In this document: one piece after another, positions 8,397 to 58,308 of the stretch
Layout: the number at the start of each line of letters is the position of its first letter
Position numbering within the stretch: position 1 is the stretch's first letter
Source: a virus
IMG/VR virus record: IMGVR_UViG_3300045988_107889
Coordinates: 42,257-106,256 of that record
Length of the DNA: 64,000 nucleotides
Strand: one strand, 5' to 3'
Made by a program: the position numbers and the translations under genes
Notes under the pieces: model-generated
The model's database searches: none
What the model saw: only the letters and a program-made list of their open reading frames with translations
What the model was told of the DNA's origin: nothing

Positions 8397-8831
8397 ATGA
8401 AAATGTATGGCGAAAAGGATGTAGTGGAACCCAGAGAATATGTCAAGATGCACCGCGTAAGAACTCTGTGTGAACTTCAGAACAACACCATGGAACCGCT
8501 CGGATGGTTCAGCCTTCCCGGATGGTTCAAAGATCTGGTCCGGTCGGAACTATCTGGTATGGCGAAGGCTGGTAACACCGGTGCCATCTCTGGTCTGGAC
8601 TACATCGCAAAGATGGAATCCAGAAAGGCGGATCGTACCGGCTGGAAGTGTGGTACTGTATCATTCTCTAGTCGCAGCCGGAAAGCCCCTATCTTCACAG
8701 ACTACCTGCGGGAACGTAGAATCTCGTTCAGCGTTCATAGGTGTAGTGGTAAGGTAGTGTTCCGGCTGACTTTCCATCCATGTGAGCTGGCCGGAATCAA
8801 GTCTCAGCTGGATCGTATCGCAATGACGTAA
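8397..8831 (+). CDS. hypothetical protein
   Basis: 144-aa ORF with GGGAGGG upstream of the ATG. The overlapping +1 ORF 8470..8757 is rejected. Confidence 0.6.
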   Translation: MKMYGEKDVVEPREYVKMHRVRTLCELQNNTMEPLGWFSLPGWFKDLVRSELSGMAKAGNTGAISGLDYIAKMESRKADRTGWKCGTVSFSSRSRKAPIFTDYLRERRISFSVHRCSGKVVFRLTFHPCELAGIKSQLDRIAMT

Positions 8832-13315: not shown

Positions 13316-13391
13316 ACCAGCATAGTTTTAAATGGGAAAACAACGGTCTCCAAAACCGTAGTTCTAGGTTCGAGTCTTAGTGCTGGTGCCA
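13316..13391 (+). tRNA. tRNA-Trp(CCA)
   Basis: Acceptor ACCAGCA/TGCTGGT. Anticodon stem ACGGT/ACCGT with loop CTCCAAA. T arm CTAGG-TTCGAGT-CTTAG. GCCA end. Confidence 0.8.
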
Positions 13392-13797
13392 CGTGCAAGT
13401 TTAATTGCACGGTGTGTAGTGTGAAAAAAGTCATATATTGCTCTATGTATATAACCTCACGGCGTAAAAGAGGTTGACTGTCTGACCGCAGTTATTCCAG
13501 TGCAATTCTGGTTGCCGTACACGCTGCTCAAAGCGGGTGAAGAGGTGTGGCACACTCCTTCCGTGCCTCACTTATGACTTCAAGGCGGTGCAATTCCGCC
13601 TAGCAGCTCTCAATCGCTCTAGTTAACTGGTTCTGGGGCGAGGGTCAAAACCAGCAACCTAAACATTGATTGCAGACACCTGGTTAAGTACAGGCTAGGC
13701 AAGAAAGCTCTCAGGCACGGTTGGGCAACACAATCCAGCCCTATCCTTTGGTTAGGCCGACTGATTGATAGGGCGGTTGTGGTTGCTGAACAAATAT

Positions 13798-13888
13798 CTC
13801 CCTGTAGCTAAATTGGTTATAGCTTCCAACTTATAATTGGAAGGCCCTCATAAGGTATATGGTGATTCGAATTCACCCAGGGAGACCA
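13798..13888 (+). tRNA. class II (long variable arm) tRNA with UAU anticodon
   Basis: Acceptor CTCCCTG/CAGGGAG. D arm GCTA-AATTGGTTA-TAGC. Anticodon stem TCCAA/TTGGA with loop CTTATAA. 19-nt variable region. T arm GGTGA-TTCGAAT-TCACC. ACCA end. Confidence 0.7.
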
Positions 13889-13939
13889 CGATACCACGAT
13901 AAAAATCTAATTCCATAAATAAGAAAGTGAGGAACTAAT

Positions 13940-14593
13940 ATGAACAAAGAAACTATGACCGTCCATAAAGCTCTTGCGGAGCTGAAAATTTTGGACGCTA
14001 GAATTTTCAACGCCACTTCTGGCAAAACATTTGTCGCCGCGAAGAAGGTGAGCGACAAAAAGATCGGCGGTGTGTTGGTCGAAACCCTCAAGAAGGATAT
14101 GAAGTCTGATTATCAGTCTGTTACGGACTTGATTGCTCGTCGGACTGCCATTAAGAGAGCAGTTGTGCTCTCTAATGCCAAAGCTAAGGTAGTAATTGGT
14201 GGTGAGACCTATACTGTGGCAGAAGCTATTGAAATGAAGAACCATGGCCTCATGGCAAAGAGAGACTTGCTGGATGTAATGGTTCGGCAGTATGAAAAGG
14301 CTCGTGCCGAGGTCGCCAAACACGAAGGCGAGTGGATTGAAGCGAAAGCCGAGCAATACATTATGAATTTCCTTCAGTCGCAGCCCAAAGAGGCCAAGAC
14401 AACCAAGGATTCTGAGGTCGTTAAGCGGTTGAGAGAAGAGTATATTGCCAACAATACGTATGAACTCATTGATCCGCTTGACATTGGTAATGAAATCAAG
14501 GTTTTGAGCGATTGGATTGACGCGTTTACTGCGGATGTAGATTCTCAGCTGTCTGTGTCCAATGCGACCACTACAATCACCGTAGAATACTAA
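13940..14593 (+). CDS. hypothetical protein embedded in the tRNA operon
   Basis: 217-aa ORF with GTGAGGA upstream of the ATG. The antisense ORF 13907..14698 is rejected. Confidence 0.7.
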   Translation: MNKETMTVHKALAELKILDARIFNATSGKTFVAAKKVSDKKIGGVLVETLKKDMKSDYQSVTDLIARRTAIKRAVVLSNAKAKVVIGGETYTVAEAIEMKNHGLMAKRDLLDVMVRQYEKARAEVAKHEGEWIEAKAEQYIMNFLQSQPKEAKTTKDSEVVKRLREEYIANNTYELIDPLDIGNEIKVLSDWIDAFTADVDSQLSVSNATTTITVEY

Positions 14594-14600
14594 AATAATC

Positions 14601-14943
14601 AACTTGCTGCAACCCGAAAACCTAAAACGGTAACCCATCGTGCTGACGGCACTTGGTTCGATGTAAAAATGAACAAATATGTGCCAACTACAAGGCAAAC
14701 TTGAAATTTTGTGCTTGTAAAAAGATTGGGCGGTTAATCCAAATCTCTTATAAAAAGAAGATATTTGCTGTAAAGCTCAAATTTCAAAGCTCGAATTTCA
14801 AAATTCAAGGCTCAAAGATCTTCAGAAGATTAAAGTTCAAGGGTCAACGTTCAATGGTTAAAGTTTTACAAAATCCTGGGTTAATGGTTTGGGTCAGTTA
14901 TCAACGCCCACGGGTCAACCACCAGGCTGGGTTGTAGCAAGTT
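14601..14943 (+). ncRNA. candidate structured RNA domain closed by a 15-bp helix, with internal TTCAA-rich degenerate repeats
   Basis: AACTTGCTGCAACCC (14601-14615) pairs with GGGTTGTAGCAAGTT (14929-14943); 14 Watson-Crick pairs plus one G-U that works only on the plus strand. Lies immediately 5' of tRNA-Leu. Confidence 0.35.
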
Positions 14944-14949
14944 CAATAT

Positions 14950-15034
14950 GCGGGATTGGCGGAATTGGTAGACGCATCGTGTTTAAGTCTCGATGTCGAA
15001 AGACGTAGGAGTTCGAGTCTCCTATCCCGTACCA
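14950..15034 (+). tRNA. tRNA-Leu(UAA)
   Basis: Acceptor GCGGGAT/ATCCCGT. Anticodon loop TTTAAGT. Variable arm GTC-GAAA-GAC. T arm AGGAG-TTCGAGT-CTCCT. ACCA end. Confidence 0.8.
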
Positions 15035-15183
15035 AAGAAAAGCCCATAGTTTGCGGACTATGACACCTGAAAAGTGGCGGTTTGCTTCTGGTAGACCGTA
15101 GTAGTGTGTTGACATCCTGGAAGAGACAGGAGTTCCCCTTTTTGATCCCCCTTACATAGCTACCCCGCTTTGCGGGGTAGCGT

Positions 15184-15259
15184 GGCCGATTAGTTTAAAT
15201 GGTAAAACGGCGGATTTGTACCCCGCAGATGTCGAGTTCGAGCCTCGCATTGGCCTCCA
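15184..15259 (+). tRNA. tRNA-Thr(UGU)
   Basis: Acceptor GGCCGAT/ATTGGCC. Anticodon stem GCGGA/CCCGC with loop TTTGTAC. T loop TTCGAGC. TCCA end. Confidence 0.75.
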
Positions 15260-15260
15260 T

Positions 15261-15334
15261 GCTACTATAGTTTAATGGTTGAACGGTTGTTTCGTAAGCA
15301 ACAGGTTCCAGTTCGATTCTGGGTAGTAGCTCCA
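15261..15334 (+). tRNA. tRNA-Thr(CGU)
   Basis: Acceptor GCTACTA/TAGTAGC. Anticodon stem GTTGT/GCAAC with loop TTCGTAA. T arm TCCAG-TTCGATT-CTGGG. TCCA end. Confidence 0.8.
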
Positions 15335-15337
15335 TAT

Positions 15338-15412
15338 CTGGGTGTAGCGCAATGGAAGCGCTCCTGATTTGGGATCAGGAGGTTGTCAGTTCGAGCCTGA
15401 CCACTCAGACCA
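15338..15412 (+). tRNA. tRNA-Pro(UGG)
   Basis: Acceptor CTGGGTG/CACTCAG. Anticodon stem CCTGA/TCAGG with loop TTTGGGA. T arm GTCAG-TTCGAGC-CTGAC. ACCA end. Confidence 0.8.
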
Positions 15413-15414
15413 AT

Positions 15415-15489
15415 GCAGGCGTAGTTCAACGGCTAGAACACCGGTCTTCCAAACCGGAAACGCGAGATCGGCACTCGTCGCCTGCTCCA
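15415..15489 (+). tRNA. tRNA-Gly(UCC)
   Basis: Acceptor GCAGGCG/CGCCTGC. Anticodon stem CCGGT/ACCGG with loop CTTCCAA. Atypical T loop ATCGGCA. TCCA end. Confidence 0.75.
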
Positions 15490-15595
15490 TATCAAGCAAC
15501 AGAAAACGATTCTCCTACCTGTTATTGTTGATAAATCACCTCCTTTCTTTACATAGCCTGGAATGGCGTTAAACTCTGCTCTGCTTGATTTATAT

Positions 15596-15669
15596 AGCGC
15601 CGTAGCATAACGGTAATGCAACGGACTTTGACTCCGTAAACGGTAGTTCGACACTATCCGGCGCTGCCA
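15596..15669 (+). tRNA. tRNA-Gln(UUG)
   Basis: Acceptor AGCGCCG/CGGCGCT. Anticodon stem ACGGA/TCCGT with loop CTTTGAC. T arm GGTAG-TTCGACA-CTATC. GCCA end. Confidence 0.8.
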
Positions 15670-15727
15670 CGTTCGTTTTATACGGACACTTGCTTTCATT
15701 AACCGGCGGTACCACCGCCGGTAACAT

Positions 15728-15812
15728 GTGGGCGTGATGTAATTGGCAAACATGCGAGATTTAGGTTCTCGTGTCGAAAGATGTGCGGGTTCGAACCCCG
15801 TCGCCCACTCCA
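15728..15812 (+). tRNA. tRNA-Leu(UAG)
   Basis: Acceptor GTGGGCG/CGCCCAC. Anticodon stem CGAGA/TCTCG with loop TTTAGGT. Long variable arm. T arm GCGGG-TTCGAAC-CCCGT. TCCA end. Confidence 0.8.
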
Positions 15813-15876: not shown

Positions 15877-16749
15877 ATGACAGTGACAGCTTATGAAGAA
15901 TTGTTGAGCAAGTTGTTGTTCGAAGAACGGAACGGTGGACAGTTGGCGTATGCTTACGTGTCTCCGGAAATGGCGACGGGTTTGTTGGCTATGTCCGGCG
16001 GCAATCGTCCGATCAGTAAGAGCACTGTGAATAAGTACAAGTCCCATATGATGAATGGCACATGGGATGAAGATACTCCGACTGGCTTTATTATGTTTGA
16101 TAAGGCTGGTGTTCTTATCGACGGGCATCACCGGCTCGAAGCAGTGAAGCGCTGCGGTAAGACAGTAAAGATGTTCTTCCTGTTCAATATGGAACGCAGT
16201 CCGTACATTGACCGGGGTAGGGCGAGAAGTGAAGCCGACGCTTTGTGTATGGCCGAGGGCGGAAACAGAGGAAAGATTTCTTCTTACAAGCGCTCGGTTG
16301 CAATCTGCATGGTGCTGAATGAGTTTAGTGCGAGGCACTTGGAGAATGAAGCTAAGAGAGCGGACATGATTTCGAAGCACATCGCTGAATTCTCCTGGGT
16401 TAATAGTTTCTTGAAGGTGAGACAGAGAAAACTTGGCACGGCTCCGGTCACAGCTGCCATGTATCTGGCGAAAGAAGCCGGAGCGAGCGATGTTAAGCTC
16501 GAATACTTCTGGAATGTTCTCCAGACTGGTTATGCTGAGTCTAGTTTGGATAGGCAGATTGTCCGCTTGAGAGATTGGATTAAGGATTCTACTATTGATG
16601 GCCGGTGCAAGCATTATCGTCACCGTGTGTTCTTGACGACCTCTTATGTGTTGTCCAGATGGTTGGACGGCAAGGAAACCAAAGGCGTTCCCGATCCTGA
16701 GTGCTTGGTTGTTTGGAACAACGGTCAGCAAAGAATTGATAACGCATAA
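15877..16749 (+). CDS. ParB/Srx-like N-terminal domain protein
   Basis: 290-aa ORF with TAGGAGG upstream. NRPISKSTVNKYKSHMMNGTW...VLIDGHHRLEAV matches the ParB-type DGxHR box. Confidence 0.6.
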   Translation: MTVTAYEELLSKLLFEERNGGQLAYAYVSPEMATGLLAMSGGNRPISKSTVNKYKSHMMNGTWDEDTPTGFIMFDKAGVLIDGHHRLEAVKRCGKTVKMFFLFNMERSPYIDRGRARSEADALCMAEGGNRGKISSYKRSVAICMVLNEFSARHLENEAKRADMISKHIAEFSWVNSFLKVRQRKLGTAPVTAAMYLAKEAGASDVKLEYFWNVLQTGYAESSLDRQIVRLRDWIKDSTIDGRCKHYRHRVFLTTSYVLSRWLDGKETKGVPDPECLVVWNNGQQRIDNA

Positions 16750-16815
16750 ATAGAATCGCAATTTGAACAAACGTCAGTAACTACAGTTAATAACCAACAA
16801 AAACATTCGCATTTT

Positions 16816-16855
16816 TTCTCAAAAAAAATGAGAAGCTATTTCCGGAACGGGATAG
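16816..16855 (+). promoter_or_regulatory. conserved two-hairpin element, copy 1 (apical CCGGAACGG)
   Basis: TTCTCA-A7-TGAGAA then CTATTTCCGGAACGGGATAG. Covaries with the copy at 22730-22772. The second hairpin recurs at 20136-20155. Confidence 0.5.
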
Positions 16856-17170
16856 TAATATATTGCCAGAGGAGAGCATCTCGCTGCCAAGCCTGATGGC
16901 AGTACCGCCGAGCGACTCGTGCATCCGCCAACCCAGCCGCAGGTCATCACAAGAGCAGACGCGAAAAAAAAAATGCCCACCACGCAGTCGCCCCGCATCA
17001 GAAAGGCACAAGGCTCGAAGCGACATGGAAGGTCGCAACGGTACAACTATAGGCAAACGCACCCTGCAAGCAACGCAAGTACATTATGGCGCAAGCCACC
17101 TAACGACATCGCTCGATTTCCTGATTTCCTGAGGCCCATATCTAGGAGTGTAATGTTGGTTTACGACTGA
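16856..17170 (+). ncRNA. T-poor non-coding leader R1, candidate ncRNA paralogous to the RT leader
   Basis: No credible ORF. Shares the block CATCCGCCAACCCAGCCGCAGG (16922-16943) with CATCCGCCACCAGCAGGGG at 22931-22949. Confidence 0.35.
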
Positions 17171-17202
17171 GTTAATAATACATGAAAAAAGGAGTACATA
17201 AC

Positions 17203-17592
17203 ATGGAAATTATCGTATGTGGTAACGCAGTAACGCTCAAGAGTGCTTTCACTCTTGAAGAAATCAATCGCGCAGCTCTGTATCGGCCTAAGTCTGTACA
17301 GCTGCTGGACGAAGATGGCAACGCACTGTTTTACACTCTCGCTGGCGAGAGAGGAGTAGTAGCACCGACCGGTATTATCTATGAGGCTGAGTCTTGTGAT
17401 GGCTCTGGTCGTGCGGTCGTAACAGTGAGTCTTATTACCGAAGCTGACCGTTCCGTACGTGAGGTTGTTGCCGAGAGATATGCTTCTGTTATCGAGAAGG
17501 TAGAAAAGATTGAAGCCCAGGTGCGCGAAGCGCTGGAAGAGATCGACGTTATGATGGCACGGGTCAGTTCCAAGATCGTAGTAGCTGGCTAA
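17203..17592 (+). CDS. hypothetical protein ending ...KIVVAG (cassette gene 1)
   Basis: Start trimmed to the ATG at 17203, 8 nt after AAGGAG. 129 aa with a C-terminal coiled segment and a terminal Gly. Confidence 0.65.
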   Translation: MEIIVCGNAVTLKSAFTLEEINRAALYRPKSVQLLDEDGNALFYTLAGERGVVAPTGIIYEAESCDGSGRAVVTVSLITEADRSVREVVAERYASVIEKVEKIEAQVREALEEIDVMMARVSSKIVVAG

Positions 17593-17633: not shown

Positions 17634-17873
17634 ATGATTATTGTTAATGTTCGTAGCACCACCCGGCGTTTTGATGGTCAGGCTGTAGATGAGAGCGTGG
17701 AAACCCCTCGTTCTCTGTTCGAGAAGATCGGAATTGAGTGCAGCCGTAGCGTAAATTCTCTTTCCGGCACGATTCTGACGCCTGATGATATGAGTTGCAC
17801 TTTTGCCGAACTTGGTGCCGCTGGTGTTTGTACTCTGAGTGCTATTGTTAAGGCGCAAGGTAACGCGATCTGA
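17634..17873 (+). CDS. small protein, candidate ubiquitin-like beta-grasp modifier (cassette gene 2)
   Basis: 79 aa, starts MIIVNVR and ends AIVKAQGNAI. Sits in a JAB/E1 neighbourhood. The fold is not verifiable by eye. Confidence 0.6.
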   Translation: MIIVNVRSTTRRFDGQAVDESVETPRSLFEKIGIECSRSVNSLSGTILTPDDMSCTFAELGAAGVCTLSAIVKAQGNAI

Positions 17874-17999: not shown

Positions 18000-19415
18000 A
18001 TGTTTTCAAATTGTTTGAAGCGCAGTGAAGTTTTAGTGCTGGCCCCAGAGCTGGAGTCTGAGTTTTCTAATATTGCTGGCGACGGGACGTTCAAAGGCGA
18101 TGACTTTGCGTTGGCAATGGCTCGGTTGTTTTTGAAGCCAAGAGTTCCGGCGGACGTGTGCATCACGGTTAGAGTGGTGGATTCTAATTGTGCTGATTGG
18201 ATTACGTGGATAAAAGACAAAGAGCGTTTTTCGGAGGTGACTTCTCAAGACAACACAATTACATTTTGCGTGTGTGATAAGGTTAAGGCCGTAGAAACTT
18301 TAGTCAGTAATATGAAATGTGCGAGCAGTTGGAAAGAGAAGACGGCAAGAGAGCTGAATCTAATGAAAGAACGACTCGGTATCATACTGAGAATTTTCAG
18401 TAATGAAGAGAGGAAGAGTACGGTTGTCCTTACCGACGTGGATAACTATGGCTCGTGGCATTACCTAGTGTGTCTTTTCAATGTATTCTGCCCATGGTAC
18501 ATTAAAGACAGGACTGAAGCGGAGTCAAAGTTTATTAAGATTCTGTCCAAAGAAGACTCCGGCATGAGTGTAATCTGTAAAGCGATGAACGATATGGTTG
18601 CCGCTGCTGTGGACGTGGCCTCAGCTAAAAAGAGATATTACCTTTATGGCTATGAGGGAAAGCTAAGGAACGTACAGAGGGAAAGATACACAAAGAAGAT
18701 GGAGAGTGCAAGAAGTCAGATCAATAAATTGACGTCCGATTTGAGAGATTGGTATAGAGAATACGAAGGTTGGTCTTTGTTGGTGGCAGCAATTGACAAC
18801 AGTAATGTTGAGAGCAAGAACGAGTTAATGGATTATTTTCTGTCGAACAAAAATGTGTCTGTTGAGAGCGGTGACAAAGATGGGAATATCGTATATGTTG
18901 TAACTGGTTATATGACACTGTTTGATCCAGAGATTGCGAGAGAGTACATCAACAATTGGTCGTCGATTTTTTATACGCAGTCTTCGTATGCGGGCCTGAC
19001 AGAAAGTGATACTAAAAAGTTAATGACAGGGATTTTCATTGACTCTGATATCAAAGTAAGAATGTGTTCCGCATGGAGACTTTCTTTCGGAGGAGGGGTA
19101 CTACCCATCGTGGCATATGGGTATGGCTGTGAATACAACAGCTATCTCCCCAACACACACCTTGATAAATATGGTTGCATGGGGAGCTGGCAACAGGCGT
19201 TAGAGAAATCTTGCGACAAATGTGACTACGTTTATACGGTAGACACGACGTGTGCCGAAAGCGGGAATCTGAATCTTAGTGATACTGTCGTATTGAGATC
19301 ATTCCTTGAAGAGTTGTTGAGAGAAGGCGCTGTAGTATTGGAGTTGCCGGATGGGCGAGTAGTTAATTACATCGACGCAATTAAATGGATAAAGGAGAAT
19401 AAGAGCAATGAATAA
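18000..19415 (+). CDS. hypothetical 471-aa protein with an E2-like LPNTH..GC loop near the C-terminus (cassette gene 3)
   Basis: Start trimmed to the ATG at 18000 after AAAGGAG. LPNTHLDKYGCMGSW is encoded at about 19146-19190. Confidence 0.65.
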   Translation: MFSNCLKRSEVLVLAPELESEFSNIAGDGTFKGDDFALAMARLFLKPRVPADVCITVRVVDSNCADWITWIKDKERFSEVTSQDNTITFCVCDKVKAVETLVSNMKCASSWKEKTARELNLMKERLGIILRIFSNEERKSTVVLTDVDNYGSWHYLVCLFNVFCPWYIKDRTEAESKFIKILSKEDSGMSVICKAMNDMVAAAVDVASAKKRYYLYGYEGKLRNVQRERYTKKMESARSQINKLTSDLRDWYREYEGWSLLVAAIDNSNVESKNELMDYFLSNKNVSVESGDKDGNIVYVVTGYMTLFDPEIAREYINNWSSIFYTQSSYAGLTESDTKKLMTGIFIDSDIKVRMCSAWRLSFGGGVLPIVAYGYGCEYNSYLPNTHLDKYGCMGSWQQALEKSCDKCDYVYTVDTTCAESGNLNLSDTVVLRSFLEELLREGAVVLELPDGRVVNYIDAIKWIKENKSNE

Positions 19416-20094
19416 GGCAACTAATGCAACGGATTTGTTGGCTGCGACAAATCCGTGCAAAATCGTATACAGTAAGAAGGCATGGATGAAGACGTGTTTG
19501 CTTGTTATGAATAGGAATCTTGAGGTTGGATGGCACGGAGTTGCAAGAAGGTTGGAAAATCCAGCTGAGTTTATCGTGGAGGACGTCTTGGTATTCCCCC
19601 AGAAGGTCACGTCGGCAAGCACCGAACCTGAAGATGCGGACTATGTGAACTGGCAGGATTCTCTTAACACGGAAATATTCAATAAGGTTCGGTTGTACGG
19701 GCATTCTCATGTGAACATGGGTGTCAGTCCATCTTCTACGGATATAAAGTATAGAGCAGATTTGCTGACAGACGTTGATGATTTCTACGTCTTTCAGATT
19801 TTCAATAAGAAAGGCTACATATCCTCACAGGTTTATGATGTTAGAGAAGGCATCCTGTACGAAAGCGACAATGTGGAACTCGCAGTGGAACGATGGAACC
19901 CCGCTGTATATGATTTGTGCAGAGGGTTTTTCGATAACATTGACCGGTTTGAGAAGGTGGACGTGCGTGATGTACAGGATGGAATCGAGTGGATCATGAA
20001 CGCAGCATCCGAGTTTGAAAAATTCATGGAGGACGCAGATAAAATTATTGATGAGCGGCCCGATTGGCGTGACGGTAAGATGTTAATTAAGTAA
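19408..20094 (+). CDS. JAB/MPN (JAMM) metalloprotease
   Basis: GHSHVNMGVSPSSTD gives H-x-H-x7-S-x2-D, with upstream acidic EFIVEDV. ATG overlaps the end of the previous gene. Confidence 0.8.
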   Translation: MNKATNATDLLAATNPCKIVYSKKAWMKTCLLVMNRNLEVGWHGVARRLENPAEFIVEDVLVFPQKVTSASTEPEDADYVNWQDSLNTEIFNKVRLYGHSHVNMGVSPSSTDIKYRADLLTDVDDFYVFQIFNKKGYISSQVYDVREGILYESDNVELAVERWNPAVYDLCRGFFDNIDRFEKVDVRDVQDGIEWIMNAASEFEKFMEDADKIIDERPDWRDGKMLIK

Positions 20095-20135
20095 AAAACA
20101 TATGTGCCTGTACAGATATGTTAAATTACATATCA

Positions 20136-20155
20136 CTCTTGTCGGAACGAGGGAG
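20136..20155 (+). promoter_or_regulatory. conserved CGGAACG hairpin, copy 2
   Basis: CTCTTGTCGGAACGAGGGAG, compared with CTCTTACCGGAACGGAAGAG (22753-22772) and CTATTTCCGGAACGGGATAG (16836-16855). Confidence 0.45.
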
Positions 20156-20267
20156 TAACAAATGGCTGTGTCGCTTCAAAAGTTTTCCGCTCTGGGAGTA
20201 GGAAAACTTTTTGAACTTAAACAGCTGGTTAGCTGTTCAGAGGTACATAAGAAAGGAGAAGACCGGT

Positions 20268-20609
20268 ATGGAGGTATATTGTGTGATAACAGAAACAGAC
20301 CAGGGTATTGATTTATCCGGTGTTTATTGGAATTTGGAGAGTGCGGTAGAACACGTGAAACGTAGGTTTTATTCAGTGTTTCAAGAATACGTCGATGATG
20401 GATGCGAAATGATTGAAGGTGACAATTTTAATGCTCCAGATAAATACGGCGCGACAATTTATCTGGAACCGGACGACTATTGGATTTGGCGTGTTTACTT
20501 TGGCGAAGTAAGAGATGAGTGCCTGGTGAGTGGGCCGAACGAAGTGGTGCCGCCGCTAGAAGGGAAGCGTGTTGACGAAGAGACGCTTATGAATTGTTTG
20601 CTGCTATAG
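20268..20609 (+). CDS. CLLL-tail paralog 1
   Basis: ATG at 20268 after AAAGGAG. Ends VDEETLMNCLLL. Confidence 0.7.
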   Translation: MEVYCVITETDQGIDLSGVYWNLESAVEHVKRRFYSVFQEYVDDGCEMIEGDNFNAPDKYGATIYLEPDDYWIWRVYFGEVRDECLVSGPNEVVPPLEGKRVDEETLMNCLLL

Positions 20610-20616
20610 AGGTGAT

Positions 20617-20958
20617 ATGATGTTTGAACTTGGGCAGAAAGTTACGCTTGCCCCAAAGTCATGGGATGAATTTCGGGGTGCTTTAATGGAGTTGTTTGCG
20701 AGAGAGATGATAGTAGATGAATTCTCAACTACTCATAAAGAAATGATATTGGTTACAGGGGTGCTTTATGGGGAAGGCGATTCTTGGTTTAACGACCTTC
20801 TAATAAATGGAGGTGAGATTATCAAGTGCTATGCTACTGGTTGGTATATGGTGAATATAAATGGAGTAAAACTGAAATTTCACGAAAGCGTGTTGTGTCT
20901 GAAAGAAGACATGAGGTCAGTTGATGAAAAATTGTTCATAAGTTGCTTATTATTGTGA
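20617..20958 (+). CDS. CLLL-tail paralog 2
   Basis: 113 aa with GAGGTGA upstream. Ends VDEKLFISCLLL. N-terminus ELGQKVTLAPKSWDEF. Confidence 0.75.
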   Translation: MMFELGQKVTLAPKSWDEFRGALMELFAREMIVDEFSTTHKEMILVTGVLYGEGDSWFNDLLINGGEIIKCYATGWYMVNINGVKLKFHESVLCLKEDMRSVDEKLFISCLLL

Positions 20959-20967
20959 GGTGATATA

Positions 20968-21300
20968 ATGTTTAGACCTGGGCAGCGGGTTGAGCTTATT
21001 CCCAAAACGTGGGATGAATTTAATGATAACTTACGGGCGGTATTTCCGAATGGAGCTGTGTCGCAGAGCGTAGACATCATCACAAACGAAAGATTTATAT
21101 ACGCCGACGATGTGATGTACGCGGAGGGCGATCCTTACCTCAGAGAGTTTATAAGAGACGGCGGCGAGATCGTTGAGTATGAACTTGGCGGTTGGTACAG
21201 GATAAGGGTTAGCAAAAAAGAGATGTCTTTCTATAAAAGTGTGTTGCGGTTAAAGCAATCTATTGATGAGCAGGTTTTTATGAACTGTTTGTTGTTGTGA
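20968..21300 (+). CDS. CLLL-tail paralog 3
   Basis: 110 aa with GAGGTGA upstream. Ends IDEQVFMNCLLL. N-terminus RPGQRVELIPKTWDEF. Confidence 0.75.
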   Translation: MFRPGQRVELIPKTWDEFNDNLRAVFPNGAVSQSVDIITNERFIYADDVMYAEGDPYLREFIRDGGEIVEYELGGWYRIRVSKKEMSFYKSVLRLKQSIDEQVFMNCLLL

Positions 21301-21584
21301 TAAGAGGTGGCGCTTTGAATATCGTAGCTGGTCAGAAATTTAGAGTTAAAAAGTGGTCAGAAAGCAATTCTGACCGCTTTTTTACCAGTAGCCATGAAAA
21401 GTATTGCGGGAAAACATTAACGGTGAGAGAAAAAGGTATACATAGAGGTGTGAGCGGTTACGTTCGCCCGATAATTTGGGCGTACGAATGTAGAGAGGTC
21501 GTGTGGTTTTCATGGATGATAGAACCTATTGAGGACCGCCGTCGTGTTAATGAAAATCTGTTTCTAAGCTGCTTGTTGTTGTAG
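21297..21584 (+). CDS. CLLL-tail paralog 4
   Basis: GTG at 21297 in a GTGA overlap; alternative TTG at 21315 after AAGAGGTGG. Ends VNENLFLSCLLL. Confidence 0.7.
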   Translation: MIRGGALNIVAGQKFRVKKWSESNSDRFFTSSHEKYCGKTLTVREKGIHRGVSGYVRPIIWAYECREVVWFSWMIEPIEDRRRVNENLFLSCLLL

Positions 21585-21591
21585 GTGATGT

Positions 21592-21933
21592 ATGAAATTT
21601 GAAGATATGTATGTTGGGCAAAAGATTAGGGTACGGACTTTAGACGACATGGTATCTGACCCTGATTTAACGTATAGACTTGATAAGTCTTTTAAAGTAG
21701 CGACGATCAGGTCTAAGGATAATACAACTCATTTGAGCTTAATTCGTAAGACAATGCGTTATTGTGGTACAGCTGTGACGGTGTTCTCATTAACAGAAAA
21801 TCTTGCACCAACAGAGTGGAGGCATGTTTATATAGAAGAAGATAATCAATATTACCCATGGGAGTCTTGGATGTTTGAACCGATTGAAAGTAAGGTTGAT
21901 AGTGATGTATTCTTGAGTTGTTTAATGTTATGA
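21592..21933 (+). CDS. CLLL-tail paralog 5 (CLML)
   Basis: 113 aa with TAGGTGA upstream. Ends VDSDVFLSCLML. Confidence 0.75.
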   Translation: MKFEDMYVGQKIRVRTLDDMVSDPDLTYRLDKSFKVATIRSKDNTTHLSLIRKTMRYCGTAVTVFSLTENLAPTEWRHVYIEEDNQYYPWESWMFEPIESKVDSDVFLSCLML

Positions 21934-21946
21934 GGAGGCATGAAAA

Positions 21947-22615
21947 ATGAATTTGTCGAAGAGTATTGAGTTCTTTAACCCCACAAAGGTCAAAGAAAGA
22001 GTACATATCATCGGCTGTGGCGCGTCCGGTTCCACTGTAGCCGAATTGTTGGCAAGAGCTGGGCTTGAGAAGGTTACTCTGTACGATTTTGACAAGGTTG
22101 AGTCGCACAATATCGCGAATCAGATGTTCAATGATAGCGACATCGGTAGAAATAAAGCTGAAGCCGTGAAAGATATGATGTTAAGTATCAATCCTGATGC
22201 AAATGGTATTGAAGTAGTTCAGGAGGGGTATACCAACCAGCGTCTGTCCGGCTATGTCTTCCTTATGGTGGACAACATTGATCTCCGCAGAAAAATTTGC
22301 GAAGAAAATGCTAGAAACCCGTATATCAAAGCTGTGTTTGATACCAGACTTCGGCTGACGGACGCGCAACACTTTGCGGCTGACTGGAGTTCTAGTGCGA
22401 TGGTTGAAAATCTGATTAACTCCATGCAGTTTACTCAAGAGGAAGCTCTGGCTGAAACTCCTCGATCTGCATGTAACCTGGAGCTTAGTATCGCTCCTTC
22501 CGTGCGGATGATTTGCTCTTGTGCAGTAGCAAACTTCATGAATTTTGTGAATGGGCGTTCGATCAAGAAGATAGTTTTGATCGACGCCTTTGATTTTACT
22601 ATGGAAGCATATTAA
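21947..22615 (+). CDS. ThiF/MoeB/E1-like adenylyltransferase (adenylation domain only)
   Basis: VHIIGCGASGSTVAELL Rossmann loop, DFDKVESHNIANQ, GRNKAEA, MVDNIDLRRKI. GAGGAGG lies 8 nt before the ATG. Confidence 0.8.
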   Translation: MNLSKSIEFFNPTKVKERVHIIGCGASGSTVAELLARAGLEKVTLYDFDKVESHNIANQMFNDSDIGRNKAEAVKDMMLSINPDANGIEVVQEGYTNQRLSGYVFLMVDNIDLRRKICEENARNPYIKAVFDTRLRLTDAQHFAADWSSSAMVENLINSMQFTQEEALAETPRSACNLELSIAPSVRMICSCAVANFMNFVNGRSIKKIVLIDAFDFTMEAY

Positions 22616-22729
22616 ATATTAGTTGTTTGAGGTGGAAATTTCGTGTCGCCACGCGCCTTAATGGCTAAAGAGATGCAGGGGAATGGCACGCCTGCTAACA
22701 ACCAATTCAATCTAAATATCTGAAAGCAC

Positions 22730-22772
22730 TTTCTATTTAAAAAAAATAGAAACTCTTACCGGAACGGAAGAG
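22730..22772 (+). promoter_or_regulatory. conserved two-hairpin element, copy 3
   Basis: TTTCTAT-loop-ATAGAAA then CTCTTACCGGAACGGAAGAG. Compensatory changes relative to copy 1. Confidence 0.5.
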
Positions 22773-23060
22773 TGGCACATCGTCCGAAAGAGGAACCCCG
22801 CTGCGTGCGATAGCAAACCAATACTTGGTGCCCTCCAAGAAGGCTTAACACCCCGGTGGCATCTTCTCTGATGAGAAGCATCGCCCGAACAACAGGAAAA
22901 ACCAGAAGGATATTCGTTCGACAGGTTCAACATCCGCCACCAGCAGGGGTATCCGGCAAACAATAAACGCCAAGTCAGGGATTTCACCGTCTCAGACGAC
23001 GACAAGCTCCGCGATGAGCATCTCGTACTGACATCCAAATCCATATATAGTTTCAGATAA
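22773..23060 (+). ncRNA. T-poor leader R2 upstream of the RT, candidate RT-associated ncRNA
   Basis: 460-nt gap between the E1 and RT genes with no plus-strand ORF. Local hairpins, e.g. CTTCTC-TGAT-GAGAAG. Shares blocks with R1. Confidence 0.4.
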
Positions 23061-23076
23061 AAGCAAGGAGAATAAT

Positions 23077-24243
23077 ATGATTTATGTAACAGCAAGAATT
23101 ACAGAGCCGTATAAGCAGATTTCTTTAGAGGATATTATGTCTGCGCTGCTTCAAGATAAACATGTGAGGGAATCGAGATCTCTATATACTAGAACAGTTA
23201 CATATGAGAGACTGCCCGAGAGAATCCTGGCAGGGTTTGACACGGGGAAAAAGATTGAGCTGCTGAGAGCATTTAACAAAAAGCATCAGGAACTGCTTGA
23301 AAGCGATCTTCATACGCATTACCACAAGTTTTTTATCCCGAAAAAGAGCGGCGGCATGAGAGAGATTAACGCGCCGGACGACGAGCTGATGAATTGTCTG
23401 CGAGAGCTAAAACTGCTGTTAGAATCTGAGTTTTATGCGAGCAGCCACGCCGCTGCGTACGCTTATGTCAAAAACAGAAGCAGTGTAGATGCAGCAAAAG
23501 TCCATCAGTGGAACAAGAGTAAGTGGTATTTAAAGACTGACATCAGCGGTTTCTTTCCCAACACTACTCCAAAGTTTGTATGGAACGCGCTGTCTACAAT
23601 TTATCCGTTCTGTCTCATTATGGAGCACAAGAACGGGAGAGAGGAGCTTAAAAAAGCTCTGTCGCTCTGTTTCTTAGACGGCGGCCTGCCTATGGGGACA
23701 CCGATCAGCCCGATGCTGACCAACCTGATTATGATTCCATTTGATTTTGAGTTCAGTAAGTTTCTGCGCAGCCTACAGGACCCAGCGAACAGCCCTGATA
23801 GAAAGGGTAGAAGGTTCGCGTATACCAGATATGCTGACGACATGAATATTAGCTGTGGTATTGAATTTGATAAGGGGTTTATTATTAGAAAGATTGAAGA
23901 GCTATTTAGGCTGTTTGGAGCTAGTTATATCATTAAAGACGAGAAGACTCATTACGGCCCGTCGTATCATAAGAATTGGGTACTCGGTGTGATGATCAAC
24001 AAGGACAACCAGATCACGATTGGGTATAAGAAGAAGCGCAACTTCGAGGCGATGCTTTTCAATTACGCGAAGGACAGAAAGAGCGGAACTTATTGGCCTC
24101 TTGAGCAACTGCAATATGTGCTCGGTCTTATGAGCTACTATCGAATGGTTAACAGAGGAAGTATTGATGGAGTTATCACTCGCTATAGTCAGAAGTTTGG
24201 CTTTGATATTGAAGCCACGATGAAGAAGGATCTCAAAAACTAA
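23077..24243 (+). CDS. reverse transcriptase, retron/Abi-like class
   Basis: FFIPKKSGGMREINAP (RT1-2), LKTDISGFFPN (motif A), GLPMGTPISPMLTN (motif B), YTRYADDMNIS (YADD), and NWVLGVMINKD, which resembles the retron VTG region. No maturase or endonuclease domain. Confidence 0.85.
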   Translation: MIYVTARITEPYKQISLEDIMSALLQDKHVRESRSLYTRTVTYERLPERILAGFDTGKKIELLRAFNKKHQELLESDLHTHYHKFFIPKKSGGMREINAPDDELMNCLRELKLLLESEFYASSHAAAYAYVKNRSSVDAAKVHQWNKSKWYLKTDISGFFPNTTPKFVWNALSTIYPFCLIMEHKNGREELKKALSLCFLDGGLPMGTPISPMLTNLIMIPFDFEFSKFLRSLQDPANSPDRKGRRFAYTRYADDMNISCGIEFDKGFIIRKIEELFRLFGASYIIKDEKTHYGPSYHKNWVLGVMINKDNQITIGYKKKRNFEAMLFNYAKDRKSGTYWPLEQLQYVLGLMSYYRMVNRGSIDGVITRYSQKFGFDIEATMKKDLKN

Positions 24244-24260
24244 AGGACGAGGTGTCATAT

Positions 24261-24491
24261 ATGAAAACTAAAACAGTATTGTGTAATGAGTGTAGATTCT
24301 CTAAGTACAGAGCTGGTATCTCTAGCTCTCTCGCTGCCATGTACGGACTCCCTGGGACTCATCCATACCCGACACACACCTGTGAGAAGTATAACGTGGT
24401 AAGAGAAAGAAAGGACTACCATGTTCGGCGGCTTCCGATTTGTGTGAAGGAAAATGGCGGTGAGCAGAAAGACAAGAAGGGTAATGAGTAA
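24261..24491 (+). CDS. small Cys-containing protein
   Basis: ATG at 24261 after GACGAGGTG. Contains CNECRF...HTCEKY. Confidence 0.55.
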   Translation: MKTKTVLCNECRFSKYRAGISSSLAAMYGLPGTHPYPTHTCEKYNVVRERKDYHVRRLPICVKENGGEQKDKKGNE

Positions 24492-24520
24492 TCTTAAAGC
24501 AGCTATGCTGGAGGTACTAT

Positions 24521-24931
24521 ATGGTAGATTGGAAGAAAAGTTTTCAATATGAAGGTATTCACTGGTGGCGGAACGTGTTTGGGATACCTTATTACTTTAA
24601 AGAGCGGAGGTACCTTCTGAAACACGGATTCACCAGAGAAGCAGAATATGATATGCCACTTTGGTTCATCAAAACGATGACGAGAGTAATGACCAGATAC
24701 TCAGATACACGATGGGGAATCCCAGGCGGATATACTGATGAGGAATGGCAGGCGGTTGTTGATAAGATGATTGAATGCCTGAAGAATATGCGGGCGTCAG
24801 AATGGTTTGAGAAGGCTCCCGAAGAGATGAGCCTGCTAGAGAGAGATATGTGGGCACAAAATATGGCCGACAAATACAAGAACGACTTCTTTGATCTGTT
24901 CAAAGAAGTCTTTTATCTTCTATGGGATTAG
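24521..24931 (+). CDS. hypothetical protein
   Basis: 136-aa ORF with TGGAGG upstream. Confidence 0.6.
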   Translation: MVDWKKSFQYEGIHWWRNVFGIPYYFKERRYLLKHGFTREAEYDMPLWFIKTMTRVMTRYSDTRWGIPGGYTDEEWQAVVDKMIECLKNMRASEWFEKAPEEMSLLERDMWAQNMADKYKNDFFDLFKEVFYLLWD

Positions 24932-25020
24932 TGGATGAGTGAGTTGTAGAGTTATGGTTACAAGAAGGATTATCAGGAAGATTTGTTCGTGTGACTTATG
25001 AGCTTATGAAGGAGGTTGCT

Positions 25021-25224
25021 ATGGTTAAAGATGCTAAGTTTGTAACGGTGTGGAGCGGAGATGTAACTATTACTACTGATTGCAAAGTGGATACGGAAAC
25101 AAACGAAGTCTTCGATATTGAGTGTGTTGATGTAGATGTTGATATTTTGCTTAACGAGTATATCGTTCTTGACGGTAAAGAGCGACTTGTATTTGATAGA
25201 GATGGCGAGTATTACATACTCTAA
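25021..25224 (+). CDS. hypothetical protein
   Basis: ATG at 25021 after AAGGAGG. Confidence 0.55.
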   Translation: MVKDAKFVTVWSGDVTITTDCKVDTETNEVFDIECVDVDVDILLNEYIVLDGKERLVFDRDGEYYIL

Positions 25225-25247
25225 CGAGATGGATTAGGAGGAGCTTT

Positions 25248-25486
25248 ATGACTTTTATTGTTAATAGAGCAAGTTTGTGGGGTACTGGTTGCCCCTGCGA
25301 AGAATCAAAACAAATGACTCTCTTCGATGGTATTAGTAAAAAAGAAAAAAGTTCTGGACTGTTGAGATAAACTCTCTGGAGGAGCTTATGGATTTCAAGA
25401 ATAAATACGGAGATATTATTTTACAGGACTCAATCAATGTTAAAGGATGGTCGGAAGTCCTGATTTATGATGGGTATATTGAGTGA
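25248..25486 (+). pseudogene. small gene split by a frameshift in an A6-G-A6 tract
   Basis: ORF a is 25248..25370. The frame of ORF b (ATG 25388..25486) is already open from 25340 (KRKKFWTVEINSLEELMDF..). The junction lies at AAAAAAGAAAAAAG, 25338-25351. Confidence 0.5.
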
Positions 25487-25524
25487 CTCTATAAAAATGT
25501 AATTTTTAAGTGAAGGATTTAACT

Positions 25525-41470: not shown

Positions 41471-42377
41471 GGTCGTCTCTGACCCTGAATATGAAAGAGC
41501 AATTTCAGCTATGCTGTGGAGTTATTCTAGACTGTCTTCGTTTGATGACTGCAAGTATGGCTGGTTTGTTCGGTACATAGCGTACAACAAAAAATTAGAC
41601 CAGGTTTACAGGAAGGTTATGGAGTGGATGAAGGAAAGACTCGACGACGAGACTTACCAAAAGGTTCTTGAGCACACGGCGGTAAGAATCAAACCGGAGC
41701 CACACTTCTTTTCCACGTATGGCAGATTTATGCACCATGTGCTGGAGCAGTATTTGTCACAGGCATTGAAGAAAGAAGAGCTTGTACCATATTTCCTGGA
41801 TCACTATGACGAGAAGGTTGTTGGTAAACCACCGAGCAAAAAGGTCGAGGATAATTTCTTCAATAATTCACTTTCGTATTTGGAAAACATTGACTTCCCA
41901 TACGATATCAAAGATATTGTCGCTGTTGAAAAAGAAGTCCACTTCATGATTGGCCCGTACAACTTTGTTGGTTTTATAGATGTATTGGCCGAAGAGAACG
42001 GATTACATATAGCCGACCACAAATCACACGGATTGAGATTCAGAAGCAACAGAAAGTTCCAGACAGAATATGACAAGGAACTAGACAGGTACTACAGACA
42101 GCCTTATATTTACTCAATCCCCATCAAAGAAGAATATGGGAAATGGCCTGCGACTTTGGATTTTAATTGTTACCGACATGGGCGGTTTATCGCAGAAGCA
42201 TTCGACGAAGAACGGCTTGAGCAGGTGAAACAGTGGGTACTGGATCGAATCGAAGAGATTAAAAATGAGAGAGAGTTTGAACCAGACCCTGAGTTTTTCA
42301 GATGTACATATATTTGTGACACTGCTGAGAGCTGTCCGTTTAGAGCTAAGAATAATAGGAGATATAAGAGTGCCTGA
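41454..42377 (+). CDS. PD-(D/E)XK nuclease, Cas4/RecB-like with Cys cluster
   Basis: N-terminal Cys (FDDCKYGW). GFIDVL...IADHKS (D..D/E-x-K). C-terminal CTYICDTAESC. Confidence 0.7.
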   Translation: MTTPFEVVSDPEYERAISAMLWSYSRLSSFDDCKYGWFVRYIAYNKKLDQVYRKVMEWMKERLDDETYQKVLEHTAVRIKPEPHFFSTYGRFMHHVLEQYLSQALKKEELVPYFLDHYDEKVVGKPPSKKVEDNFFNNSLSYLENIDFPYDIKDIVAVEKEVHFMIGPYNFVGFIDVLAEENGLHIADHKSHGLRFRSNRKFQTEYDKELDRYYRQPYIYSIPIKEEYGKWPATLDFNCYRHGRFIAEAFDEERLEQVKQWVLDRIEEIKNEREFEPDPEFFRCTYICDTAESCPFRAKNNRRYKSA

Positions 42378-56664: not shown

Positions 56665-57342
56665 GTGTTTGATTTTATTGCGGAAGAACAGCAAAGACAA
56701 GAGCGCCAGATCAATCTAATTGCGTCAGAGAACTTCTGCTCAGAAGATGTGATGAAAGCAGTTGGTTCTTGCCTTACCAACAAGTATGCCGAAGGGTATC
56801 CTGGCCACCGGTATTACGGTGGATGTGAAATAGTAGACGAGCTTGAGCTTTACTGCCAAAAGAAATGGCAGGAAGCCTTCAACACAGACTACTTCGTAAA
56901 TGTCCAACCACACTCCGGCACACAGGCAAACGAAGCGGTTTACTACGCGCTGCTTAATCCAGGTGATACGGTTTTGAGCATGTCGTTGGACTGTGGTGGG
57001 CACCTGTCACACTTTTCGCCAGCCAGCATTTCTGGTAAGCTTTACAATCCGGTTTTCTATGGCTTGGATGAAGATGGGATTATTGATTACTACGATCTCA
57101 GCGAAAAAATAAGAACTCACAAACCCAAGCTAATTTTAGCTGGTGCGAGTTCTTATTCAAGAGAAATTAAGTTTGGATTGATTAGAAAAATCATTAACAT
57201 CGAAATGTCTGTTGATCCTGATTACCATCCCATCTTTATGGTGGATATGGCACATATCGCCGGGCTGATTGTCGGCGGCGCGCATGTATCTCCGTTCGGG
57301 CTTGCAGACGTGATTACTACTACCACGCATAAAACTTTGCGT
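56665..57342 (+). CDS. glyA: serine hydroxymethyltransferase, exon 1
   Basis: LIASENFCSEDVMKAVGSCLTNKYAEGYPGHRYYGG. Ends ..TTTTHKTLR just before an in-frame TGA that belongs to the intron. Confidence 0.85.
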
Positions 57343-58308
57343 TGAATTGGTCGGCGCAAGTAAAACCTACTTAACTGCGGGAACACCCTTAGAGCCTTAA
57401 CAACCAAATTATTGTGGGGACACAATGATGGCGAGGTTAGCGACCAAGGTACGGTAAAATCGTTAAGGATTGGGCAACCAGACGCATCCAAGCATCTAGA
57501 ACAGATGAAGGTTCAACGACTATTCTTTATGAAGTAGGAGAGGTGAGGCTCCGAAATAGTAGGCTTCTTTTTAGAAGATGATATAGTCTAAGCTAAATAG
57601 AAATATTTAGAAGTGTGTAATTTTTTATTTAGAAGGTGATATAACTGTCAAATCTAAAAGATAGAACTGGTCAGAAATATGGACGTTTACTCGTCCTCAA
57701 AAGAGGCCCAGACAAAGTTTTTAAAAGTGGGCGAAAAGTGGTTCAGTGGGAGTGCTTATGTGAGTGTGGAAATAAAACTTTAGTTGCTACTACCAGTCTA
57801 GGTGCCGGGCTAACCCGGTCTTGCGGGTGTTTGAATGATGAAAAAAGGAAGGATTCAAAAACAAAGCATCATACTCACGGTCACCGCAATGAAAGAATTT
57901 ACAAGACATGGCACGGAATAAAGGCGCGATGCTGCAACCCTTCATCAGACAATTATAACAATTATGGTTTACGAGGCATCACGGTCTGTGACGAATGGAA
58001 AAATAATTTTCAAAATTTTTACGATTGGGCTGTGAAAAATGGCTATCGGGATGACCTGTCTATTGACAGAATAGATAATGATAAAGGGTATTTTCCAGAA
58101 AACTGCCGATGGGAGACTCCAAAAGGGCAGCAAAGAAACAAGCGAAATAATAGGTTGTTGACTCGTAATGGGGAAACTCATTGCCTTGCAGAGTGGGCAG
58201 AAATTACTGGAATCAACAGAAGCACAATTTCTGATAGGATTGATAAAATGGGCTGGACAGTTGAAAAAGCCCTTGCAGAACCGCCTCGCCATTGACACAC
58301 AGGTTCTG
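57343..58308 (+). mobile_element. group I intron in glyA, homologous to the dnaE intron
   Basis: P AACTGCGGGAA (57373-57383), Q AACCAGACGC (57476-57485), R GTTCAACGACTAT (57511-57523), S GATGATATAGTC (57577-57588). U57342 precedes the 5' splice site and G58308 ends the intron. Splicing restores HKTLR-GPRGG. Confidence 0.85.
57645..58295 (+). CDS. intron-encoded homing endonuclease, HNH_3-like (first canonical start is GTG 57738)
   Basis: Paralog of 48004..48642 (YKTWHGIKARCCN...IDRIDNDKGYFPENCRW). The conserved N-terminal LKDRTGQKYGRLLV is encoded upstream of the GTG. The only start-like codon there is CTG at 57645, 5 nt after AAGGTGA. Confidence 0.6.
   Translation: MSNLKDRTGQKYGRLLVLKRGPDKVFKSGRKVVQWECLCECGNKTLVATTSLGAGLTRSCGCLNDEKRKDSKTKHHTHGHRNERIYKTWHGIKARCCNPSSDNYNNYGLRGITVCDEWKNNFQNFYDWAVKNGYRDDLSIDRIDNDKGYFPENCRWETPKGQQRNKRNNRLLTRNGETHCLAEWAEITGINRSTISDRIDKMGWTVEKALAEPPRH

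Follow-up and report, generated by a model that had tools for sequence, protein, structure and literature searches.

Retrons are commonly treated as bacterial anti-phage systems that pair one template RNA with a toxic effector. What, then, does a retron-type reverse transcriptase (RT) do in the genome of a phage, which RNA might it copy, and with which proteins might it work? These questions are raised by a 64,000-nt stretch of IMG/VR record IMGVR_UViG_3300045988_107889 (positions 42,257–106,256 of the record), hereafter the window, which comes from a ~107-kb phage of gut Clostridia. Its RT gene (23077–24243, plus strand, as are the features below unless noted) follows a cassette coding for an E1-like enzyme, a candidate JAB-type peptidase, and a candidate ubiquitin-like (Ubl) protein. 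The reading that we favor, as probable though well short of secure, is that the RT, several RNA units, and this cassette form a retron-like phage module in which one RT serves several templates and the cassette takes the place of an effector. The window was compared with 164 loci containing RT relatives, taken from IMG/VR viral contigs (7–152 kb, mostly 50–150 kb) and from contigs of metagenome-assembled genomes (MAGs) of gut Clostridia; loci are cited below by numbers with the prefix L.

First, we asked what kind of RT this is. The 388-aa protein was identified by profile and PDB matches, and the peptides quoted for it in a preliminary description of the locus are all present in the open reading frame (ORF): FFIPKKSGGMREINAP, LKTDISGFFPN, GLPMGTPISPMLTN, YTRYADDMNIS with the catalytic YADD motif, and VLGVMINKD. 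The Pfam scan returned RVT_1 (residues 87–294, 50.7 bits) as the only domain, with no maturase or endonuclease domain, in agreement with that description. The protein carries a conserved N-terminal extension of ~70 aa and has more than 2100 homologues of 379–398 aa; the Shine–Dalgarno sequence AAGGAG stands ahead of its gene at 23066–23071. The top matches are retron RTs in PADLOC (RT_II-A, 6e-41, 139 bits; RT_I-A, 6e-39), in NCBIfam (retron_St85_RT, 163 bits, below the cut-off of 235), and in the PDB (retron Ec83 RT, 1e-25). Because the best matches in all three libraries are retron RTs, we assign the protein to the retron type, as had been proposed. The segment VLGVMINKD, previously likened to the retron VTG region, indeed aligns to VTGVTLTNN of the Ec83 enzyme. 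The NCBIfam models for DRT2, DRT3, and group II RTs all stayed far under their cut-offs (Drt2, 25.9 bits vs 390; group II model TIGR04416, 66.6 bits vs 300), and no Rfam match to an intron RNA was found in 21500–25500. As judged from these sequence comparisons, the RT sits in the retron or retron-like branch.

A side observation concerns the integrity of this gene in relatives. In L168 (10786–12216), the RT gene is broken after ..GGLPQGTPISP by a ~285-nt stop-filled insertion, beyond which reading resumes in frame with ..TNFMMIPIDH; L169 has an E1 gene identical to that of L168 and an intact RT. RT matches that exceed the usual length by ~230–285 nt also occur in L147, L148, L151, L152, and L159. 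The insertion in L168 looks like an intron within a conserved catalytic motif.

We then turned to the question as to which RNA this enzyme may copy. Between the E1 stop codon (22615) and the RT start lies a 461-nt leader (22616–23076) without a plus-strand ORF of at least 40 aa. Its position immediately behind the E1 gene, its T-poverty, and its structure had all been described correctly: the T fraction is 0.206 in the leader and 0.171 in 22790–23040 (among the lowest 0.8% of 251-nt windows), compared with 0.256 in the window, and segment 22700–23076 folds with a minimum free energy of −98 kcal/mol (z = −3.4; 1 of 100 shuffles equally stable). The view of the leader as one RNA did not hold up. 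It consists of two separate elements, a small RNA of the skipping-rope family in the first 81 nt and, behind it, a retron-style template unit that we call unit B.

In a retron, the msr-msd RNA is closed by a stem of two arms, a1 and a2; a G stands at the 3′ end of a1, followed by adjacent hairpins, the template, a2, and the RT gene. The G is the branching residue that primes synthesis of complementary DNA (cDNA), and the hairpins form the msr part recognized by the RT. A search of the leader for msr-msd-like arms found them, together with the G and strong covariation. A perfect inverted repeat of 9 nt forms the two ends of unit B (22717–23059, 343 nt): TATCTGAAA is a1 (22717–22725) and TTTCAGATA is a2 (23051–23059), whose end lies 18 nt ahead of the RT start. 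The G at 22726 is followed by hairpin 1 (22731–22751), hairpin 2 (22753–22772), a variable T-poor part (about 22791–23040), and then ATATAG; in relatives ..AUGUAG is usual just ahead of a2. Unit B scores 47.5 bits with a covariance model (model R1, matches accepted at E ≤ 0.01) built on the 5′ domain of the unit, which is 76 nt long.

This arrangement is not peculiar to the window. Most of 134 distinct regions upstream of RT relatives contain an inverted repeat in which a1 is directly followed by G and a2 ends 14–30 nt before the RT. The arms differ from locus to locus yet remain complementary, as in AACTGTAAC/GTTACAGTT, GCTTGTAAT/ATTACAAGC, GTTTGTGTT/AACACAAAC, and GCTACGAT/ATCGTAGC. On its 3′ side, the G is followed by a short spacer, two hairpins, the first of them variable in sequence, and a conserved stretch similar to GUAACAAAUUG. 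The G itself does not vary in alignment A4 or A5, and RNAalifold recovered a1/a2 and hairpin 2 from the anchored alignment. In alignment A4, 93.6% of the paired cells are complementary vs 31–47% with slid partners; compensatory changes occur in 16 of 16 pairs (9 of 9 for a1/a2), values that none of 500 shuffles reached. Hairpin 2 provides independent evidence because its choice did not depend on complementarity. For a1/a2, a non-circular test was made by anchoring the G with the covariance model and scoring arms in the sequence downstream and in shuffles of it: the best arm scored 9.2 on average in the real sequence vs 5.2 in the shuffles, and 151 of 196 anchors exceeded the 95th percentile of the shuffles. 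Judged by this covariation, the unit has the architecture of a retron noncoding RNA (ncRNA). A retron-branch RT next to RNAs of retron architecture lets us call the assembly a retron-like module with good confidence.

The preliminary description anticipated a template RNA beside the RT, and a retron-style unit is indeed there; what it missed is that the unit belongs to a multi-copy family. With model R1, 213 matches were obtained from 99 sources; every one is on the strand of the RT, and 117 distinct a1 sequences occur. An a1/a2 pair of its own accompanies 186 of the 213 matches, enclosing a median of 297 nt, and AG immediately precedes a2 in 132 of 182 good units. Full flanks are available for 71 loci: a unit immediately precedes the RT in 53 of them, one starts less than 100 nt past the RT stop in 36, and 54 have at least two units within 13 kb, in general two to four and at most eight. 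The usual arrangement is one unit before the RT and one or two after it, the downstream ones beginning 11–50 nt past the RT stop. Read directly, L023 has two complete units past the RT stop (arms TTCCTGTAAT and TCATTTGCAAT) in addition to the upstream unit with arm AACTGTAAC; L019 has eight copies over 5 kb.

The window holds two full units and one truncated copy. Unit A (16792–17161) matches model R1 at 16793–16879 with 26.8 bits (E 1e-3, filters off). It has an interrupted a1, AACCAAC..ACATTC (16792–16808), a G at 16809, two hairpins, a variable part, ATCTAG, and an a2, GAGTGT..GTTGGTT (17146–17161); it contains the 251-nt segment with the lowest T content in the window. Unit A follows a ParB-like gene and precedes the cassette; its positional equivalent, with 16-nt arms, lies at 2648 of L006. 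The truncated copy of the 5′ domain (20106–20173; 24.9 bits, E 3e-3), between the JAB gene and the first of several small genes, is of uncertain status, with at best a weak candidate for an a2. A search with nhmmer was less sensitive than the covariance model and recovered only unit B in the window. We also considered a mobile element with terminal inverted repeats, akin to a miniature inverted-repeat transposable element, and ruled it out: the arms differ from copy to copy and covary, the interiors have no relation to one another, and the 213 matches all lie on the transcribed strand. Three independent assemblies with the same E1 gene (L165, L166, and L167) each stop 55–100 nt past the E1 stop codon, as expected if the repeated 5′ domain breaks short-read assemblies.

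What lies between the conserved ends of a unit is not conserved. The variable parts are ~200–260 nt long and C/A-rich, and 170 of them have a mean composition of A 0.29, C 0.275, G 0.23, and T 0.20. In 49 of 61 representative units, T falls under the local background, and in 54 C exceeds it; T-poverty is therefore a trait of the whole unit family. Folding is barely stronger than in shuffled sequence (mean z −1.1), so that an msd in the form of a single long hairpin is not seen, and the variable parts resemble neither the other units of their locus nor any further part of the window. Comparison of the window with L003 gives a nucleotide identity of 88% for both E1 and the 5′ domain, 92% for the stretch that runs from a2 up to the ATG, and 86% for the RT; the two variable parts are 49.7% identical, which is the level of shuffled sequence (51%). 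Among 189 pairs of units with 5′ domains at least 90% identical, the variable part is less than 80% identical in 122 and less than 60% in 42. Where variable parts can be aligned, the substitutions are ordinary transitions without base-specific bias. One route by which the template part changes is a ~21-nt tandem triplication (CTTCTCTGATGAGAAACAGCC) at ~40–110 of L002, a 91%-identical relative; the window has a single copy.

The variable parts are non-coding: their period-3 signal is 0.835, with 0.75 for shuffles and 2.33 for the RT coding sequence. A hidden ORF in the T-poor part, sense or antisense and of the DRT2 kind, was considered and rejected, since stop depletion is mild (median shuffle p 0.22–0.27; p < 0.05 in 7 and 10 of the 61 units). 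In many units, stops interrupt all six frames; some are fully open in one frame. On the minus strand of the window, a 120-aa ORF (22733–23095) runs across all of unit B, and the gene finder called a similar one in L013. This antisense ORF is best explained by the A-poor composition of the antisense strand, and it has no codon periodicity.

The other element of the leader differs from the template unit and is no part of it. The skipping-rope RNA (Rfam RF02924, 22622–22702), between E1 and unit B, scores 50.3 bits vs a gathering score of 36.7; the match spans the whole model (positions 1–80) and covers only the first fifth of the leader. An RNA of this family occupies the equivalent place only in the closest relative of the window (L001, 97% identical) and is absent near the RT in 16 other loci scanned, including L004, L006, L007, L009, and L011. 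In L006 (75% RT identity), the gap between E1 and RT measures just 344 nt. In L107, a skipping-rope RNA occurs elsewhere, within a tRNA array (8449–8531, 69 bits). Since it is missing from the leaders of relatives and found elsewhere in L107, we regard the element as a separate small-RNA gene. According to Weinberg et al. (2017; PMC5737381), skipping-rope is a structured RNA whose function is unknown and which is associated with genes in its vicinity. Rfam gave no further family in the leader region, and no clear terminator was seen downstream of the skipping-rope RNA. The hairpin at 22730–22752, considered for that role, was ruled out as it is hairpin 1 of unit B, which covaries in relatives. 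A promoter and terminator scan of 21800–24600 gave nothing beyond shuffle expectation.

With which proteins might such a set of RT and RNAs work? No PADLOC model of a retron effector matches any neighbor, consistent with the earlier statement that a classical effector is missing. What recurs instead is the order p136, Ubl-like protein, P493, JAB, E1, unit, RT. The 136-aa protein (17182–17592) has tblastn matches in 43 loci and size-matched genes (128–133 aa) in L006, L007, and L011. The 79-aa candidate Ubl protein (17634–17873) has tblastn matches in 54 loci and conserved C-termini (..VVKAD(N/G)A / ..IVKAQGNAI; alignment A7). Its comparison with the PDB gave sub-threshold matches only (E 0.26–1.3), several of them to full-length Ubl domains, and hhalign against MoaD gave nothing. 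P493 is a conserved 471-aa protein (18000–19415), whose ORF opens at TTG 17934; homologues start at ATG. Its AlphaFold2 (AF2) model is confident (mean predicted local distance difference test (pLDDT) score 86.8); a search of BFVD gave one uncharacterized phage protein, and the PDB gave no fold match (best E 0.46). We considered P493 as an E2 or a CD-NTase and did not retain either assignment; no other E2 candidate was found.

The 228-aa product of the next gene (19408–20094) has no match in PADLOC, Pfam, or NCBIfam. It is a candidate JAB/JAMM-type metallopeptidase by virtue of its JAMM motif alone: HSHVNMGVSPSSTD corresponds to HxHx7Sx2D, a pattern kept in 138 of 138 homologues. Between JAB and E1 lie five tandem small paralogues (95–132 aa, 20211–21933) without a family match, all ending in a CaaX-like CLLL or CLML. 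They are lineage-specific, with tblastn matches mostly in L001, L003, and L006 and weak ones (28–35%) of the first and fifth in L009 and L010. The E1-like adenylyltransferase of the ThiF family (222 aa, 21947–22615) scores 85 bits with Pfam ThiF; the PADLOC models of Cap2, an E1–E2 protein, cover only the Rossmann part. The best 120 E1 homologues listed are all at least 57% identical, and in RT loci outside the lineage of the window E1 is 45–62% identical. The preliminary description had the E1 right and, in the JAB, a candidate that carries the motif; it missed the Ubl-like, 471-aa, and 136-aa genes. Downstream of the RT, a Cys-containing protein of 76–79 aa (24252–24491) is present as claimed. 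It is confined to six close relatives; most other loci have units in its place. Directly upstream of unit A, a gene for a protein with a ParB-like N-terminal domain (15877–16749; phrog_5931, weak ParB match) was noticed. A PRTRC-type ThiF/ParB cassette was considered and discarded (PRTRC_ThiF model, 35 bits vs a cut-off of 145).

The connection between this cassette and the RT is one of gene order. By tblastn of the window proteins, E1 was found in 149 of the 164 loci, JAB in 138, and P493 in 133, always upstream of JAB; the loci without cassette genes mostly have too little upstream sequence. The order P493, JAB, E1, RT on one strand is kept almost always, down to 37–40% RT identity, while the genes after the RT are completely exchanged. 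In L111, the RT stands between JAB and E1. In the window and L006, units flank the cassette on both sides, with one at its upstream border; in L072 and L103, a unit comes straight after E1. Three look-ups starting from E1 gave two contigs that extend past this gene, both with a unit and an RT downstream. The suggestion that the E1/JAB cassette supplies the partners of the RT is thus supported by synteny in ~150 loci, and is not borne out in four loci in which RT and units occur without E1 within 6 kb (L097, L114, L132, and L135). From the conserved gene order, we consider the chances about equal that the RT and its RNAs work together with the Ubl-like/JAB/E1 cassette and that they do not.

Several observations weigh against the reading of RT, units, and cassette as one module. 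The score of the best NCBIfam model stays below its cut-off, and the retron signature positions, although they align with Ec83, are altered. NAxxH and VTG are reportedly the signature motifs of retron RTs; the window has AAKVH and VLG, and the family consensus at these positions is DAxKRH and NLG. The Ubl fold of the 79-aa protein is unproven, its single-sequence AF2 model (pLDDT 36) being unusable, and P493, with a confident model that matches no PDB fold, leaves the cassette with no recognizable E2. The putative role of the units as templates is suggested by architecture and adjacency, and several units are kilobases away from the RT. Finally, the loci belong to related phages that share further neighbors, so that conserved gene order may partly reflect a common backbone.

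This last point leads to the strongest competing explanation, to which we give a real but clearly smaller chance than to a joint module: RT and units could form a self-contained retron, and the cassette could be a separate neighbor kept in place by the shared phage backbone. Such a backbone would also account for the other shared neighbors, which include radical-SAM (270 aa), Band_7 (299 aa), Fic, and Macro proteins, and in many loci, as in L009 and L023, one to four unrelated genes are placed between the two genes E1 and RT. The four loci without a nearby E1 fit this explanation as well. A backbone alone accounts less easily for an order from P493 to RT that persists while the downstream genes change, for an RT inside the cassette, or for units at both the upstream edge of the cassette and the end of E1; moreover, no other effector-like gene is consistently there. 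One of the four is L097 (4500–8300, a Defluviitaleaceae MAG contig). Its RT relative (48% identity) has two units downstream and no Ubl/JAB/E1 cassette; the neighbors are integrase-like, excisionase-like, and RelB/DinJ-like genes and an AAA ATPase. This locus suggests that the RT–RNA part can occur in other contexts.

A second explanation, which we consider improbable, is that the units are independent structured phage RNAs with a regulatory, processing, or small-RNA role that are not reverse-transcribed, and that the RT uses another RNA or only one of them. Many copies do lie far from the RT, such as the eight over 5 kb in L019 or a unit beside tRNAs in L107, and these genomes are rich in small RNAs (skipping-rope, drum, transfer-messenger RNA (tmRNA), pistol). 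Against this stands the layout itself, since a1/a2 arms, a G after a1, and adjoining hairpins are what defines retron ncRNAs. Furthermore, most full loci have units right next to the RT, units stay with it in loci that lack the cassette, and they never leave its strand. A third possibility, that a T-poor template yields cDNA which encodes a protein as in DRT2 or diversifies a target gene as in a diversity-generating retroelement (DGR), would fit a sense strand that leaves few stops on both strands, the 120-aa antisense ORF, and the units open in one frame, but it is largely refuted and in our view hardly credible given the missing codon periodicity, the many units stopped in all frames, the Drt2 score, the lack of a second copy of any variable part in the window that could make a template/variable repeat pair, and a transition-dominated spectrum that is not adenine-specific.

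If RT, units, and cassette do act as one module, the following sequence of events can be envisaged. The RT would bind the shared 5′ domain of each unit, prime on the 2′-OH of the G after a1 (22726 in unit B, 16809 in unit A), and copy each variable part, so that one enzyme would produce several different G/T-rich multicopy single-stranded DNAs (msDNAs). That the RT uses all units sharing the 5′ domain in this way is a claim that we make with moderate confidence. Instead of a classical effector, the 136-aa protein, the Ubl-like protein, the 471-aa protein, JAB, and E1 would act with this RT–RNA set. The module might serve conflict between phage and host or between phages, as anti-defense or for the exclusion of other phages; the variable msDNAs would then be exchangeable elements of specificity or decoys, and the Ubl machinery the protein-modifying arm. 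Carriage by a phage, several templates, and wholesale replacement of templates point to such a role, which is a guess. More speculative still, and in our estimate a long shot, is that an exchangeable msDNA library lends specificity of sequence or shape to a Ubl conjugation machine composed of Ubl, E1, JAB, and P493, whether as guides or decoys against host defenses or rival phages, or as target or control of the conjugation. If this is true, a system of viral origin would exist in which nucleic acids program the modification of proteins.

How does this module relate to known systems? With bacterial retrons, it shares an ncRNA beside the RT on the same strand, a1/a2 closure, a G 3′ of a1, msr-like hairpins, an RT closest to retron RTs, and accessory genes in the same operon-like block. 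It differs in being phage-encoded and nearly universal in a large group of gut phages; in IMG/VR it has 327 confirmed places, in phages of animal guts. Where bacterial retrons have one ncRNA per RT with a single conserved hairpin as template, here several units stand upstream and downstream, each with a long, hypervariable, and weakly structured template part; the altered signature motifs and the N-terminal extension set the RT itself apart. Retron types I–XIII as classified by Mestre et al. (2020; PMC7736814) do not include ThiF, JAB, or ubiquitin, which are the neighbors here. Several ncRNAs per RT and the lack of a known effector type place the module outside the catalogued retron types.

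The cassette recalls Bil, Bub, and CBASS type II operons, which contain a Ubl or a CD-NTase, an E2, a JAB, and an E1. Shared features are an E1 domain, a candidate peptidase with a JAMM motif, a small protein that has the size and pattern of a Ubl, and a co-oriented block. In contrast to those operons, the cassette is carried by phages, in linkage with an RT and its RNAs; it has no recognizable E2 and no CD-NTase, and it encodes a minimal E1 domain. The candidate Ubl protein ends in ..KAD(N/G)A rather than GG. In engineered retron arrays ("multitrons"), which are synthetic, one RT is combined with serial msr-msd units for multiplexed editing. The arrays described here likewise combine one RT with serial units; they are natural, and each unit has its own covarying a1/a2 arms. 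In the literature that was searched, we found no paper that joins retrons with ThiF, JAB, or ubiquitin, in line with the earlier impression that this pairing is unfamiliar. Nor did we find, in these papers, a description of a natural multi-ncRNA retron, of a phage-encoded retron of such kind, or of a multi-copy template RNA beside a Ubl-like/E1/JAB set.

Further structured elements were noted in the window and its relatives. The window contains a pistol self-cleaving ribozyme (RF02679, 7193–7270; 66.9 bits vs a gathering score of 34.5), two group I introns (RF00028; 47639–47950, 82.9 bits, and 57319–57610, 52.4 bits), and an array of ten tRNAs (13316–15809) that shortly precedes the ParB-like gene with unit A. 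Near the module, a drum RNA (RF02958) was found in L023 (8669–8774, 72 bits) and phage-encoded tmRNAs in L020 (10211–10629) and L034 (10341–10761).

With a compact putative recognition domain of 76 nt, the units seem to accept inserts of 200–260 nt of any sequence, and several of them occur per RT; these properties match the needs of multiplexed retron editing with long donors. For the biology of these phages, the reading proposed here would, if true, move retrons to the viral side of the arms race, provide the first natural case of several templates for one RT, and link reverse transcription to ubiquitin-like conjugation.

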